The notes below the pieces were generated by a model. That model did no database searches. It was given only the letters and a program-made list of their open reading frames with translations, and was not told the DNA's origin. Positions 8,763-40,791 of a DNA stretch of 40,791 bases are shown one piece after another (positions within the stretch are counted from its first letter, which is position 1; each line of letters begins with the position of its first letter). The stretch is from Candidatus Moranbacteria bacterium RIFCSPLOWO2_12_FULL_48_12 (GTDB taxonomy: Bacteria > Patescibacteriota > Minisyncoccia > Moranbacterales > UBA1568), in the NCBI GenBank assembly GCA_001784735.1, contig MFSB01000008.1:1-40791 (forward strand). The letters are read 5' to 3'. The translations under genes and the position numbers were made by a program.

Positions 8763-9316
8763 TAAATAAGAGTTAATTAACGTTTCGGGAGGCTGAAAAC
8801 TTCATCTCGTGGTACATACAAGCCAAGAAAGGAGCTTTTATTGCAACGTCGTTTAGTTTAATCTCAATTAGGGTCTAATTCCCCGCCGCTTGCGGCGAGT
8901 ATCAAAGACAAATTTGTCAAAGATACCTCGCGGCTTGCCGCGAGGAGTATTCATTGCATAAAACAGCACTTCTCTGGCTTCATAGAAAGAAAATTAAAAA
9001 AATCTAGCCTCCCATAAATACCATTAAACCGTAAATAACACCATCATTGATACTTCTTCCAGTTCAAACTGATGTATTCTATTCTAGTATTTTGCCAGCC
9101 TCGACGGCTAGGCGGGCAAAAAACTAGAATGCTTGCAAATGAGACATTGTTTTAGAATGTGGTTCTTGTCTTTTACTTGCATTCTAATTCTCACGGCTGT
9201 TAGTTTCAGAGCGCATTATATTATTTTTCAAATATACTGTCTAAAAATTCAAAGACCCGGGGAGAGAAGATTCATCTCCGCGGGCCCCTCCAAGTTTTGC
9301 TTTTTCTTACAATCCC

Positions 9317-32808: not shown

Positions 32809-32864
32809 GTATCATAATTCCACCTGCCTCGACGGCAAGGCGAGCGGCCGCGGAATTATGATAC
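32809..32864. terminator. Long hairpin after the DsbA-like gene
   Basis: A 13-bp outer stem GTATCATAATTCC / GGAATTATGATAC enclosing a GC-rich insert that contains GCCTCGACGG. No clear T-run on the plus strand, so a terminator role is uncertain. Confidence 0.45.
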
Positions 32865-35426: not shown

Positions 35427-35476
35427 GATACCCGCCCGTACCGAACAGTACGTTCGGGCGGGCATGATAAGTGATA
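35427..35476. repeat. Upstream hairpin module, second copy (see 38..82)
   Basis: GATACCCGCCCG..CGGGCGGG (8-bp outer stem, inner CCGAAC/GTTCGG) followed by the exact 14-mer CATGATAAGTGATA. Confidence 0.5.
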
Positions 35477-37198: not shown

Positions 37199-37459
37199 AC
37201 GAGGTGGGTGCGTCTCAAATAAATGGAGAAGTGGATTCGTCTCATCGCGACGCCGTAGCCAGAAAGTGGTTGCGGCGCGTGTTTTTTTCTCCTGCCCGAA
37301 ATGCTTTTGTTGGTTGAATAGATGAAGGCTTTTTTGAATTATGAGGTTATAAATATGCTTTAACAGAAGGAAATATCGTTGCAGGCGGGCTTGAAAAAAA
37401 TCTGTTTTCCTGTAGAATAGGGGAGTGTTAATGAGATTTTTGATTGAGGAATTCAGTAT

Positions 37460-37714
37460 ATGAAAGGTTACATATATATTTTACTCAGTTTAAAAGATTA
37501 TAAGACGTATACGGGATCTACAGATAATCTTGAAAAGCGATTAAAAGAACATCATAATGGGAAGTGCAAAGCGACAGTAAATCGTAGACCGCTTCAATTG
37601 ATATATTCTGAGAAAATTGATAGTTTGGATGAAGCTAGAAAAAGGGAGAAATATTTTAAAACAGCTTCAGGTAGAAGAGCTTTAAAGAAAATTTTTGAGG
37701 ATTTCAAAAAATGA
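37460..37714 (+). CDS. GIY-YIG nuclease domain protein (84 aa)
   Basis: GYIYILLS..YTGSTDNLEKRLKEHHNG......R.P..LIYSE......A.KREKYFK. AT-rich. The stop codon abuts the first base of tRNA-Gln. Confidence 0.88.
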   Translation: MKGYIYILLSLKDYKTYTGSTDNLEKRLKEHHNGKCKATVNRRPLQLIYSEKIDSLDEARKREKYFKTASGRRALKKIFEDFKK

Positions 37715-37785
37715 TGGGGAATGGCCAAGTGGTAAGGCAATGGGTTCTGGTCCCATGATCGGGGGTTCGAATCCCTCTTCCCCAG
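37715..37785 (+). tRNA. tRNA-Gln (anticodon CUG)
   Basis: Hand-folded. Acceptor UGGGGAA/UUCCCCA with U1-A72 and G73. D arm GCC-AAGUGGUAA-GGC. Anticodon arm AUGGG-UUCUGGU-CCCAU. T arm GGGGG-UUCGAAU-CCCUC. No encoded CCA. Confidence 0.9.
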
Positions 37786-37819
37786 CTAGTAGTTTTGGTT
37801 AAGAAATGATAATTCTGTA

Positions 37820-37955
37820 GCCAAGCGGCCCGCCTCGACTCGCTAGAAGCTTGTCTTCAGCGAGGTGGGTAAGGCAGTGGGTTCTGGCCCGTCTCGACGA
37901 GGCGTTGAGCCGAGGTGGATCCCACCATGCGAAGGTTCGATCCCTTCCTCCCCAG
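37820..37955 (+). pseudogene. Second tRNA-Gln(CUG)-like sequence lacking a contiguous 5' acceptor strand and carrying two related hairpin insertions
   Basis: GCCAAGCGG-[41 nt]-TAAGGC-A-GTGGG-TTCTGG-[32 nt]-T-CCCAC-CATGC-GAAGG-TTCGATC-CCTTC-CTCCCCA-G. Stem changes relative to the first tRNA-Gln are compensatory. Both insertions begin CCCG(C/T)CTCGAC and end CGAGGTGG. Confidence 0.6.
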
Positions 37956-37974
37956 CTGATGAATTTAAAATTCT

Positions 37975-38520
37975 ATGAAATCATTTTCTCGAGATATTTT
38001 GATTGTTGATTTTGAAGTCACAAAGTTTGATATTGAAAAAGGTGAGCCTATTCAAATAGGCCTTATCCTTTTAGATAAGAATACTTTAGAAACCAAGTGG
38101 TCGTATAGTTCTTGGATACAGCCAAAACAGCCAGTTTCTTTAGAGCAAGCAGGTCTGCGTTGGGCAAGCCTCGATCAAAATGATTTGGAAGAAATAAAGA
38201 AAGCCCCAGACCTGGTAACTGTTGCGAAAAAAATTGTAAAATTGTTACCGGAGAAATACTTTCTCTGCGCTTGGAATGCCACATTTGATTTTTGTTTCTG
38301 GGATAAACTTCTCAAGACGGTTGGTATGCGAACCAAAACTGCTAATATCTTGGATCTCTGGACATTGGCACAGGTAAAATTGCTGAGCGATGAGAATTAC
38401 ACTGGAGACTACAAATCAGAATCTGTTTTTCAGTATTTTGGTGCCAAGCCAAGAACCAAACACTATGGCATCACTGATTGTGAAATTGAAGCAATGCTTT
38501 TGAGGAAACTATTGCAATAA
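37975..38520 (+). CDS. DEDDh-type 3'-5' exonuclease (DnaQ-like fold)
   Basis: Exo motifs LIVDFEVT (DxE), AWNATFDFCFW (NxxFD) and HYGITDCE (Hx4D). AT-rich. Confidence 0.78.
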   Translation: MKSFSRDILIVDFEVTKFDIEKGEPIQIGLILLDKNTLETKWSYSSWIQPKQPVSLEQAGLRWASLDQNDLEEIKKAPDLVTVAKKIVKLLPEKYFLCAWNATFDFCFWDKLLKTVGMRTKTANILDLWTLAQVKLLSDENYTGDYKSESVFQYFGAKPRTKHYGITDCEIEAMLLRKLLQ

Positions 38521-38606
38521 GAAAAGAAAAGGAGGGCAGGTATCTTTTTCAAGAAAAAATAATTTTTTGGATTCGATTATTGCATAATAAGGTGGCCAGT
38601 TCTCGT

Positions 38607-39017
38607 ATGAAAATACTCTTTGTTTGCGAAGGCAATATCAACCGCAGCCAGATGGCAAGCACTCTCTTCAAGGCGCTCGTTCCCGAAGCTGAGGTACTTT
38701 CGGCCGGCGTATATGCGGATCATCCCGGCGAATTTCTTTCCGCGGTATCGGAGGGATCCATCGCTGCGATGAAGGAGCTGGGCTTCGATATGAGCTCAAA
38801 CATTATCACGCAACTGACCAGAGAAATGGTGGAGGCAGCCGACAAGGTTATTCTTGTCGGTTCTGTGCCGGGCGGATCCATACCCGAATATCTCAAGAAT
38901 TCTGTGAAGCTCGAGACATGGGACGTGCCGGATCCCGGTTATGGTCAGATATCCATCGAAGCGGCCAGGGATATGATATTGAAAGACGTGAAGCAGCTCG
39001 CAGAGAAGTTGAAATAG
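38607..39017 (+). CDS. Low-molecular-weight phosphotyrosine phosphatase / ArsC-like protein
   Basis: MKILFVCEGNINRSQMA (CX5R-S P-loop) and a distal WDVPDP. The start is taken at ATG 38607. Confidence 0.82.
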   Translation: MKILFVCEGNINRSQMASTLFKALVPEAEVLSAGVYADHPGEFLSAVSEGSIAAMKELGFDMSSNIITQLTREMVEAADKVILVGSVPGGSIPEYLKNSVKLETWDVPDPGYGQISIEAARDMILKDVKQLAEKLK

Positions 39018-39249
39018 TATTTCACGAATACTAAAGCTATTGAAGAGCAAGGCCATCTATAGATGTTTGATTATTTCGAACACCTTTTCGTTTTATGTTG
39101 GTTTGGGTTGCCAGAAAAGCAATTTCGTGGCATAATGGGTTTTACTTGTCCCGTACTACACTATATCAGGTGATAGTATTGGCATAGTAAACTAAGAATT
39201 GATACACCATTCTCTATTACTTTTGATGATAGTTCGGTGTGGTACTGGG

Positions 39250-40791
39250 ATGAACAACCCGATTTTTTTTCTGGCACGCAAGATGTGGCAATTTTCCGAG
39301 GGCAATCACCCGAGGGTAATTTTGTTTGCCTTTTTACTGATTGTTGCCAATGCTATCAGTCTTTTAGAACCGCTCATTGTGGCCAAGATTTTGAACACCG
39401 TCCAAGAACAGGGGATATCCTTTGCCAACTTGCATATCTTTTTTATCCTGCTCGGCCTGTTTATCCTTCAAACCATACTTTTTTGGGTCTTCCACGGGCC
39501 GGCTCGTGTGCTCGAGACGACCAATAGTTTTTTGGTGCGTGCCAATTACAAAAAATACCTGCTCAATGGGACGATCGGACTGCCGCTGGAATGGCATACG
39601 GAACATCATTCTGGCGATACTATCGATAAGATCGAGAAGGGGACGAAGGCACTCTATAACTTCTCCGAAAATAGCTTTCAATTTATTCAGGCAATGGTGC
39701 GCTTTTTTGGTTCTCTGATTGCTTTGGCACTTTTTAATTTCAATACGACTTTCATCGTAGTGTTTGTGACGCTCATCGCTATTCGTATCATTATCGAATT
39801 CGACAAAACGCTTGTGAAACAATACCGTCTGCTCAATACAGCGGAGAACAAGATTTCCGCGAAGATTTATGATGTCATCAGCAATATTTCTACGGTGGTT
39901 ATCTTGCGGGTGGAACAACTGCTTTCCAAAGATTTGTGGAAGAGCATTATGAAACCTTTCGGGCTGTATGTCGAGAATAGCAAGCTCAATGAATGGAAGT
40001 GGTTTACGGCCAGTATGGTGAGCGGCACGATGATCTCTTTTGTTTTGGGATTTTATGGGTATATGACGCTTCTCCATGGCGAAACGATTCTTGTAGGAAC
40101 CCTCTTTGCCCTCTATAGCTACACGGGGCGTATCAACGAGATATTTTACAGCTTCGCTTATTTGTACAGCGATACGGTGCGCTGGCGCACATCCATCCAG
40201 AATGCCGAAGAATTATCCGATAATTTTCGCGAAATAGCAGAAGAGGGGAGTATCATACACGAATGGAAGATTTGCGATATACGTTCGTTGACATTTTCCT
40301 ATCACAGCCAGGATGATGCGGACTTGCACCTCGATAATGTGTCTCTGTCTTTCCGCCGGGGTGAGAAAATCGCCGTTATCGGAGAGAGCGGCAGTGGCAA
40401 GACAACTTTTCTCAAAATTATCCGCGGTTTGTACGCGCCGACGAAAGTTTCAGTCAGTCTGGACGGCCAGGAGCTTTCTGATGGATTTATTTCGATGAAA
40501 AATGACATCGCGCTTATCCCGCAGGAGCCGGAAATATTCGCCACCACCATTCGGGAAAATATCACCATGGGCGTGGATCGCACGGAAGAAGAGATACGGA
40601 AGTATATGGATATCGCCCGCTTCAGCGCTGTCGTGGAACGCTTGCCGCACGGTCTGGAATCTTCCGTCGTGGAGCGGGGAGTGAACTTGAGCGGCGGTGA
40701 GAAACAGCGCCTCGCTTTGGTGCGGGGGCTTATGGCATCGGAAGACAAATCGATGATTCTTCTCGATGAATCGACGAGCAGTGTCGATGCG
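39250..40791 (+). CDS. ABC exporter, fused permease and ATPase (partial; runs off the 3' end of the window)
   Basis: Hand translation from ATG 39250 is open to the window end (514 codons). It is absent from the ORF track because it has no stop. The TM region is followed by Walker A GESGSGKTT, signature LSGGEKQRLAL and Walker B ILLDESTSSVD. Confidence 0.9.
   Translation, partial: MNNPIFFLARKMWQFSEGNHPRVILFAFLLIVANAISLLEPLIVAKILNTVQEQGISFANLHIFFILLGLFILQTILFWVFHGPARVLETTNSFLVRANYKKYLLNGTIGLPLEWHTEHHSGDTIDKIEKGTKALYNFSENSFQFIQAMVRFFGSLIALALFNFNTTFIVVFVTLIAIRIIIEFDKTLVKQYRLLNTAENKISAKIYDVISNISTVVILRVEQLLSKDLWKSIMKPFGLYVENSKLNEWKWFTASMVSGTMISFVLGFYGYMTLLHGETILVGTLFALYSYTGRINEIFYSFAYLYSDTVRWRTSIQNAEELSDNFREIAEEGSIIHEWKICDIRSLTFSYHSQDDADLHLDNVSLSFRRGEKIAVIGESGSGKTTFLKIIRGLYAPTKVSVSLDGQELSDGFISMKNDIALIPQEPEIFATTIRENITMGVDRTEEEIRKYMDIARFSAVVERLPHGLESSVVERGVNLSGGEKQRLALVRGLMASEDKSMILLDESTSSVDA

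Follow-up and report, generated by a model that had tools for sequence, protein, structure and literature searches.

A displaced tRNA-Gln gene, probably native, carrying two palindromic elements beside a GIY-YIG nuclease gene in a Candidatus Moranbacteria contig

What are two short hairpins doing inside a bacterial tRNA-like sequence, one in the D-loop and the other at the canonical intron position 37/38 of the anticodon loop? The question is raised by a locus of Candidatus Moranbacteria bacterium RIFCSPLOWO2_12_FULL_48_12, on contig MFSB01000008.1, which was analysed here at its full length of 40,791 nt (the window). The window is a mid-GC (~47%) bacterial segment, and many groundwater metagenome assemblies hold DNA identical to it. 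A first-pass annotation, made from the sequence without database searches, had noticed downstream of a tRNA-Gln(CUG) gene a second, twice interrupted copy, and had left two readings for it: a tRNA pseudogene colonised by a miniature hairpin element, or an unusual interrupted bacterial tRNA that needs processing. Our analysis favours a specific form of the former. The segment 37817-37955 would be a dead and redundant remnant of the original tRNA-Gln(CUG) gene of the lineage, displaced by a cassette that brought a nuclease gene and a replacement tRNA. A mobile GC-rich palindrome, of a kind widespread in Patescibacteria, would later have inserted itself there two times. To this whole explanation we give a probability of about 0.85.

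The upstream gene is as first described: ARAGORN calls an intact tRNA-Gln(CUG) at 37715-37786 on the forward strand (tRNA1), which Rfam scores at 62.7 bits. The tRNA-Gln-like body downstream of it (copy 2, 37820-37955) is present and ends at 37955, although the intact isoacceptor lies 33 nt upstream and not 35. Moreover, it is not the same whole tRNA body as supposed, since it lacks the 5′ acceptor strand: U8 is preceded by the seven bases TAATTCT in place of the required TGGGGAG. Read in order, copy 2 consists of GTAGCCAAGCGG, a 41-nt insert (CCCGCCTCGAC...CGAGGTGGG), TAAGGCAGTGGGTTCTGG, a 32-nt insert (CCCGTCTCGAC...CGAGGTGGA) and TCCCACCATGCGAAGGTTCGATCCCTTCCTCCCCAG, which confirms the proposed boundaries of both interruptions to the nucleotide. 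The first (ins1, 37829-37869) falls in the D-loop between G19 and U20, and the second (ins2, 37888-37919) between anticodon-loop positions 37 and 38; neither is assigned a strand. The canonical position of one insertion, and the precision of both, whose removal restores a perfect tRNA sequence from position 7/8 onwards, speak for a functional interrupted tRNA from whose transcript the hairpins are cut out in the manner of archaeal or eukaryal introns. Against it, copy 2 is detected as a tRNA by neither ARAGORN nor Rfam, with its insertions or after their excision, because without the 5′ acceptor strand no acceptor stem forms. Intron-aware ARAGORN on native and 'spliced' copy 2 found nothing (at lowered stringency, only a spurious tRNA-Ser). 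A search of the window region and eight related loci with Rfam at permissive E-values gave only partial tRNA matches, those of the remnants of loci L008 and L016, and no match for the hairpins or for the ~140-nt 'type 2' segments described below. Copy 2 as a functional tRNA gene was therefore rejected, as it has no complete cloverleaf with a 7-bp acceptor stem and no model recognises it.

The origin of copy 2 is told by its relatives. Here L-numbers denote compared contigs and loci; L008-L037 are 30 loci from species-level Patescibacteria genomes, and L038-L040 hold the closest homologues of the nuclease. Without its insertions, copy 2 is identical over tRNA positions 7/8 to 76 to the real tRNA-Gln genes of L007, L038 and L040, and its sequence type is the normal tRNA-Gln in L007, L021, L034, L038 and L040. 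L007 was found among contigs encoding the exact RNase_T protein of the window, six others of which show the window arrangement. In L007, an intact and uninterrupted tRNA-Gln(CTG) called by ARAGORN (TGGGGAGTAGCCAAGCGGTAAGGCAGTGGGTTCTGGTCCCACCATGCGAAGGTTCGATCCCTTCCTCCCCAG) lies directly upstream of the identical RNase_T-family exonuclease gene (37975-38520, forward strand, in the window), with 0 mismatches to the window over 652 nt that comprise the 3′ part of the tRNA and the RNase_T gene. On the other side, L007 1-55 matches window 37372-37426 at 100% over 55 nt. L007 has neither the sequence between these anchors (window 37427-37816) nor the two hairpins, and thus offers an empty-site allele for the filled one of the window. 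Because the intact L007 tRNA is identical and stands at the same place, copy 2 corresponds to positions 7/8-76 of the native tRNA plus the discriminator base (37817-37955, forward strand). Judging from this alignment, the 5′ end of the native gene is what an incoming block of ~390 bp has cut away.

This block, or cassette (37427-37816, forward strand, as delimited by comparison with L007), comprises a 33-nt leader, a GIY-YIG open reading frame (ORF), tRNA1 and a 30-nt spacer, and stands in place of 51 bp of the L007-type allele: a 45-nt leader and the TGGGGA of the native tRNA. The ORF (37460-37714, forward strand; Pfam PF01541, E = 1.6e-16) encodes a minimal GIY-YIG nuclease of 84 aa and Slx1/UPF0213 type, and its stop codon directly abuts position 1 of tRNA1. 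Upstream, a consensus scan found a promoter-like site, TTGAAA-16-TAGAAT (37391-37418, forward strand), which is probably the native tRNA-Gln promoter now lying upstream of the GIY-YIG gene, since the segment that contains it is 100% identical in the cassette-free L007. The derived arrangement of the window is carried by 11 independently assembled contigs, whose sole polymorphism in 700 nt is 37740 A>C together with 37756 T>G (L002, L162). These two positions are the pair 27-43 of tRNA1, changed from A27-U43 to C27-G43, and such a compensatory change argues that tRNA1 is the constrained and presumably working copy. The stem differences between tRNA1 and copy 2, from which tRNA-like constraint on the latter had been deduced, are real but say nothing on constraint after the interruption, because two tRNA-Gln lineages, native and cassette-borne, are being compared. 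An assembly artefact was rejected, as independent ENA and JGI assemblies show identical sequence.

The two insertions are homologous, as had been proposed from their common ends. Both start CCCG(C/T)CTCGAC and end CGAGGTGG(G/A), and the 11-mer CCCGYCTCGAC is found exactly twice in the window; with one mismatch allowed there are 6 occurrences against 1.08 expected, a number reached by 0 of 100 shuffles. The occurrence of CGAGGTGG near 37200, formerly taken as related, lies outside any element and is close to what chance gives, with 3 matches where 0.8 are expected and 3 or more in 4 of 100 shuffles. Each insert had also been described as an 8-9-bp hairpin, which is right for ins1, with a terminal stem of 9 bp, a DNA minimum free energy of -9.9 kcal/mol and z = -2.66, but not for ins2, whose terminal stem depends on two G.T wobbles and which as DNA folds no better than shuffles (z = -0.33). 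Stems with G.U pairs do pair better on the sense strand, a point in favour of removal as RNA. Both insertions belong to a family with the consensus CCCGYCTCG...CGAGGYSGR, where a complete element has an 8-bp arm YCGYCT(C/A)G pairing with a downstream arm. Subfamily i (CCCGCCTCG...CGAGGCGGG) includes ins1 (CCCGCCTCGACTCGC...GCGAGGTGGG) and is found at the same tRNA site in L009, L010, L038 and others. Subfamily ii (CCCGTCTCG...CCGAGG(C/T)GGA) includes ins2 (CCCGTCTCG...CCGAGGTGGA), whose nearest relative, CCCGTCTCGACGAGGCGTCTAGCCGAGGCGGA of L109, lies in reverse orientation in a tRNA-Asn fragment; this subfamily is present at non-tRNA sites too. In the window and in L008-L037, all complete elements are in pieces of tRNA that have a GIY-YIG gene next to them. 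L010 and L038 hold, at the same D-loop site, versions of one element that are exact reverse complements of each other, and copies may be nested (L008, L026, L034) or arrayed head to tail (L013, L018). The arrays (L018:1783-1850 and 2372-2585; L013:1922-1983) repeat a 31-nt subfamily-ii unit in tRNA-Gln fragments on both sides of the GIY-YIG gene, and those of L018 are partly masked as N in the public record. In tRNA contexts, insertion sites follow (T)GG^T, where the caret marks the insertion point: Gln 19/20, Gln 37/38, Leu 10/11, and others at 7/8 and 11/12. This rule is limited to tRNA sites, because 125 general insertions among the matches listed gave no clear motif beyond a G...C extension of the palindrome.

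The family is by no means restricted to tRNA genes. A metagenome scan for subfamily i returned at least 125 copies in at least 120 loci, and a scan of viral contigs for the element returned 0 matches. Among the 123 unique copies listed, 17 lie within 150 nt of a GIY-YIG gene, 52 in long ORFs and 54 elsewhere, the latter often flanked by direct repeats of 7-14 nt. Hosts of the in-ORF copies include AtpA and GyrB, both Pfam-confirmed, and two further ORFs that we take to be TsaE and RfbB; the element is translated there as PASTRG..STRGG or in the antisense frame. Examples of in-frame copies are L118:2801-2845 and L083:1418-1462 (AtpA), L056:1624-1665 and L085:2341-2382 (GyrB-like), L053:1274-1318 (TsaE-like) and L080:1839-1883 (RfbB-like), where 10-17 residues such as PASTRGDDRSSTRGG, or PPRV..RVEAG on the opposite strand, are added to host genes that are otherwise intact. 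Length is divisible by 3 in 73% of all listed copies against 35% of the GIY-adjacent ones, which are non-coding; the corresponding in-ORF figure (50/52) is partly circular, because the ORF criterion leaves out frameshifting inserts, and it is not relied on. The first-pass annotation had named scattering of the element over non-tRNA sites as a mark of a plain pseudogene, and this is what we find, between genes and in frame within them. The family shows the conserved termini, the many unrelated sites, the presence/absence polymorphism and the use of either orientation expected from a dispersed mobile palindrome. Since its members occur in both orientations, nested or in tandem, intergenically and in frame in protein genes, we regard them as DNA-level mobile insertions and not as introns. 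A pseudogene colonised by a miniature hairpin element is thus the alternative that held, now with an intact ancestor (L007) and a family scattered at non-tRNA sites, and copy 2 itself is an ordinary kind of object. When all candidate elements were excised in all loci, a whole tRNA was restored only in L026, which has an intact copy upstream, so that interrupted copies are always redundant; one further restored-tRNA match, in the window, was spurious, with an arm of ins1 used as acceptor strand. The L026 locus (1855-2383) holds an intact tRNA-Gln(TTG), the GIY-YIG gene and then a near-full-length tRNA-Gln(TTG) in which one acceptor-strand G is missing and a nested palindrome pair follows position 10.

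Specific forms of the intron reading fail on their own terms. A bulge-helix-bulge (BHB) motif has two 3-nt bulges around a 4-bp helix that the intron start forms with the start of the 3′ exon. On direct reading the inserts start CCCGCC and CCCGTC, to which no 4 nt of the exon starts TAAGGCAG and TCCCACCA are complementary; no such helix can be built on UAAGGC or UCCCAC, and the predicted fold closes each insert on itself. A fixed intron polarity is contradicted by the opposite orientations at one D-loop site (L010 versus L038), and removal at the RNA level by the family members kept in frame, unspliced, in the AtpA and GyrB ORFs. Group I introns need a ribozyme core of ~200 nt or more, whereas the inserts have only 41 and 32 nt and no Rfam match even at E <= 10. 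An origin as P-nucleotides or fold-back from local sequence was also rejected, the arms being those of a conserved family and not the complement of their flanks.

The nuclease gene next to the remnant places the locus within a wider pattern. The 84-aa protein is a bare GIY-YIG domain without auxiliary domain. Its family profile best matches PDB 1YWL and 1ZG2, nuclear magnetic resonance (NMR) structures of UPF0213, and then SLX1; residues Y6, Y17, R27, H31 and E63, of catalytic type, are invariant across 30 homologues. Both the minimal core and the Tyr...Tyr...Arg...His...Glu set assign it to the Slx1/UPF0213 branch, and its TIGR01453 match (26.6 bits) is below the cut-off of 56. Relatives were located in the 30 species-level genomes with an 8-sequence GIY-YIG alignment, and in 29 of the 30 loci ARAGORN found a same-strand tRNA after the stop codon, within a few to ~40 nt in 23. 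Most of these tRNAs are Gln (CTG or TTG), although Leu, Asp and Ser are also found, and Met further downstream in L028. In the 140 nt upstream of each ORF, a 5′ fragment of the same tRNA precedes the gene: a script found this displaced piece (tRNA positions 1 to 17-46) in 24 of 29 loci, and L018 and L029 were added by eye, giving 26. All of them (24/24 by script, ~26 by eye) are interrupted by one or two insertions of 23-65 nt, nine carrying two. The canonical form is seen with the closest homologues (L038, L039, L040; 70-76% identity): TGGGGAGTAGCCAAGCGG[hairpin]TAAGGCAGTGGGTTCT, then ATG, ORF, stop and intact tRNA, with the start of the ORF replacing the anticodon. In L008, L016 and L018 the upstream fragment is accompanied by a downstream 3′ remnant with hairpins, the latter as in the window, and the metagenome loci add tRNA-Asn, tRNA-Glu and another type of tRNA-Gln to the pattern. 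Typically, the unit seems to join the nuclease gene to a fresh 5′ half of a tRNA, or to an entire tRNA, and to insert within a resident tRNA or ahead of it; an intact tRNA is rebuilt in this way, and a displaced piece stays behind. In eight loci (L008, L014, L015, L021, L025 and L038-L040), the D-arm segment TAAGGCAGG of the displaced tRNA-Gln fragment stands ~5-15 nt before the GIY-YIG ATG. This segment resembles a Shine-Dalgarno sequence (TAAGGAGG), and the nuclease gene may borrow its putative ribosome-binding site from the tRNA fragment.

Altogether, the following history can be proposed. The comparison with L007 indicates that the cassette, an 84-aa Slx1/UPF0213-type GIY-YIG gene with its own tRNA-Gln(CUG), landed just downstream of the probable native promoter, where it took the place of the native leader and of the first six nucleotides of the tRNA. 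Left without an acceptor stem, the native copy became unfoldable as well as redundant, and two palindromic elements then came to sit in it at the (T)GG^T sites 19/20 and 37/38. From that moment the native promoter would transcribe the nuclease gene, tRNA1 and the remnant, RNase P cleavage at tRNA1 would set the 3′ end of the nuclease message, and glutamine decoding at CAG would depend on the cassette tRNA. The elements would persist in displaced tRNA pieces, which tolerate or favour them, because insertion into a working tRNA would presumably be lethal. Beyond the anchors, L007 is more distant, with an ABC-transporter gene only 87% identical and without the LMWPc phosphatase gene (window 38580-39017). 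The 100%-to-87% mosaic over window 37372-40791 indicates a recent recombination tract around the tRNA locus.

Several points weigh against this history. That the remnant has no tRNA function is read from its anatomy only. L007 being a mosaic relative, the polarity of the change rests on parsimony. The arrival of the cassette and both hairpin insertions have to be accommodated with zero point substitutions in ~700 nt of flanks, and the 11 contigs of the same population include no intermediate, be it a cassette without hairpins or hairpins in an intact tRNA. The window is moreover atypical, with no upstream 5′ fragment and a displaced piece that is the downstream 3′ part. Finally, the occupation of all ~26 fragments in little time is not what a slow and neutral colonisation would lead one to expect, and points to targeting, to selection or to a mechanistic coupling. 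Three non-exclusive ideas for this constant and quick occupation were considered. Under the first, the element would have a strong preference for tRNA DNA, and purifying selection would clear its hits in working genes.

A second idea, which extends the history proposed above, is that the hairpins are a selected part of the cassette that 'locks' the displaced tRNA pieces. They would do so by breaking the direct-repeat homology through which the nuclease gene could be deleted or the working tRNA scrambled, by neutralising a toxic fragment, or by tuning expression from the hijacked promoter. In this regard, besides the occupation of every displaced 5′ fragment, elements are far denser in tRNA fragments than in the remaining non-coding DNA of these loci. 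In cassettes that share a tRNA type, one and the same site can hold different subfamilies and orientations, which argues for repeated gain rather than one inherited insertion. The two window insertions interrupt the two longest stretches that tRNA1 and the remnant have in common, GG^TAAGGCA and TGGGTTCTGG^TCCCA. However, a rough estimate puts that coincidence at ~0.05 by chance, and the blocks are simply conserved parts of tRNA-Gln; recombination between tRNA1 and a downstream remnant would not delete the nuclease gene; and the same elements at many unrelated sites need no cassette-specific function. We hold locking possible but doubtful. Combined with the nuclease, it leads to an equally tentative picture of a three-part selfish system acting on Patescibacteria tRNA genes, where a GIY-YIG gene with a replacement tRNA or 5′ half takes over a promoter, a palindrome obligatorily 'locks' the displaced piece, the nuclease may spread the palindrome, and in-frame copies of PASTRG type spill into protein genes. 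If that were true, the remnant in the window would be a fresh example of locking.

The third idea, that the palindromes are moved or captured via the Slx1-like nuclease in the way of a transposase associated with repetitive extragenic palindromes (REPs), is in our view unlikely. The presumably structure-specific enzyme would cut cruciforms or tRNA-like DNA close to its own gene, and repair would use copies of the element. The protein is a minimal Slx1/UPF0213 domain without DNA-binding domain, palindromes flank nearly every copy of its gene, and the window accumulated three events with no substitutions between. Head-to-tail arrays in L013 and L018 would also fit. The tRNA insertion sites (GG^T) resemble the 3′ end of the element, and the start of tRNA-Leu, GCCGAGGTGG^, equals the element end GCCGAGGTGG(A). 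On the other hand, strand transfer is outside the known GIY-YIG chemistry, and we know of no GIY-YIG enzyme that catalyses it. Around 80% of the listed elements have no GIY-YIG gene within 150 nt, several metagenome family members come without tRNA fragments or palindromes, and the 125 listed general insertion sites share no consistent target motif. Slx1 enzymes are structure-specific (PMC1564403), a property in line with such a role.

The weakest of the readings, the interrupted bacterial tRNA that needs processing, is left with hardly any probability by the missing acceptor strand, the two orientations at a single site, the lack of BHB pairing and the intact tRNA-Gln(CUG) next to it.

The context of copy 2 recalls several known systems, among them Rickettsia palindromic elements (RPEs), REPs and their associated tyrosine transposases (RAYTs), GC clusters, integrative elements and archaeal introns. 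RPEs are dispersed palindromes of ~100-150 nt that lie between genes, in RNA-gene sequence and in frame in protein genes. The elements described here are likewise short, dispersed and palindromic, with in-frame inserts (PASTRG..STRGG in AtpA, GyrB, TsaE and RfbB), but they are of ~30-50 nt, GC-rich in a mid-GC to AT-rich host, from a different phylum and without sequence relation to RPEs, and they are concentrated in displaced tRNA pieces beside a nuclease gene. REPs, together with bacterial interspersed mosaic elements (BIMEs) and REP doublet hairpins (REPINs), are also GC-rich imperfect palindromes of ~30-40 nt, multicopy, clustered, in both orientations and flanking a small nuclease-type gene. 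In contrast, the copies read here have no GTAG head, and no Y1/HUH RAYT gene turned up, although no search aimed at RAYT was made; the partner gene is GIY-YIG, of a chemistry not known to transpose DNA, and the elements occur in coding sequence too, whereas REPs are extragenic. The GC clusters of yeast and fungal mitochondria and other organellar palindromic mini-elements share with this family ~30-40-bp GC-rich hairpins in a less GC-rich genome, presence/absence differences between close relatives and GIY-YIG endonuclease genes in the same genomes; unlike them, the present elements are bacterial, have hot spots in tRNA fragments and show no TAG or AG target duplication at tRNA sites.

Integrative elements that target tRNA genes (attL/attR) similarly leave one intact tRNA and a partial copy, the incoming DNA supplying the replacement part, but here there is no integrase, the whole element has only ~0.4 kb, and what is duplicated is in most cases the 5′ half (positions 1 to ~17-46) and not the 3′ end. 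Archaeal BHB introns and split tRNAs offer short structured insertions at 37/38 and in the D-loop; the locus differs from them in having no BHB geometry, both orientations, a truncated gene beside an intact copy and a family that enters proteins in frame. Closer in its nuclease is SegB of phage T4, a GIY-YIG gene among tRNA genes that is variably present in relatives and inherited with flanking tRNA (PMC2330249). SegB, however, has a DNA-binding region and proven site-specific cleavage (PMC2330249), whereas only an 84-aa core is found here. Immunity by simple target disruption is not evident and is argued against, because the tRNA copy of the cassette regenerates an intact tRNA; the homing-type evidence at the locus is its presence/absence polymorphism only.

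For this locus, then, the tempting claim of archaeal-style tRNA introns in bacteria is removed. Automated annotation will miss or misread such tRNA remnants. What surrounds them is a recurrent architecture in Patescibacteria, made of a displaced tRNA fragment with a palindrome, an Slx1-like GIY-YIG gene and an intact tRNA, and a literature search found no description of it or of these palindromes. It is apparently an undescribed but recurrent variant of known selfish-element themes. Moreover, an RPE-like palindrome family enters essential proteins of minimal genomes in frame. If the link between nuclease and palindrome were true, it would provide a concrete biological context for prokaryotic Slx1-like proteins (UPF0213/YhbQ) and a new route by which a small-genome host becomes dependent on the tRNA copy of a selfish element. 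In the Candidate Phyla Radiation, GIY-YIG genes have been reported in rRNA insertions that are not introns (PMC11270868), and a fusion of a TrmH-type domain (tRNA Gm18 methyltransferase) to a prokaryotic Slx1-like domain has been noted (PMC1564403).

Other loci add variants to this panorama. At L160:13418-13462, L089:3534-3572 and L094:427-465, an intact tRNA-Ile is preceded at 39-85 nt by a 5′ tRNA-Ile fragment that the palindrome interrupts, and no GIY-YIG gene separates the two; these are either cassettes that lost the nuclease gene or fragments that arose without it. L038:780-1160 contains a second, different GIY-YIG gene (98 aa, 819-1115) flanked by 45-nt direct repeats that consist of a tRNA 3′ end plus a palindrome (TCCCTTCCTCCCCAGCCACCGTCGCTCGCGAGCGACGTGGCCAGC), which points to a further type of GIY-YIG insertion, one directed at the 3′ ends of tRNAs. 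At L038:649-800, and ~60-200 nt past the end of the tRNA in L010, L013, L014 and L024, there is a GC-rich segment of ~140 nt that starts as the antisense of a tRNA T-arm (GAGGTAAGGGATCGAAC) and ends as a direct copy of a tRNA 3′ end (TCCCTTCCTCCCCAGC). This segment is possibly either a structured RNA or another sort of remnant of a tRNA end.

Elsewhere, the window encodes among others a prfB-like gene, ftsE/ftsX and an HD-domain gene. It also holds short GC-rich intergenic palindromes at 9095-9118, 32823-32846, 35431-35462 and 8926-8945, among them GCCAGCCTCGACGGCTAGGCGGGC, CCTGCCTCGACGGCAAGGCGAGC and CCCGCCCGTACCGAACAGTACGTTCGGGCGGG. The hairpins near 9095 and 32823 that had been linked to the insertions do exist and may be short relatives of them (GCCAGCCTCGAC...AGGCGGGC); the first two of the palindromes just named look like the termini of the element and like a copy next to the element in L115. 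These palindromes may double as terminator-like hairpins.

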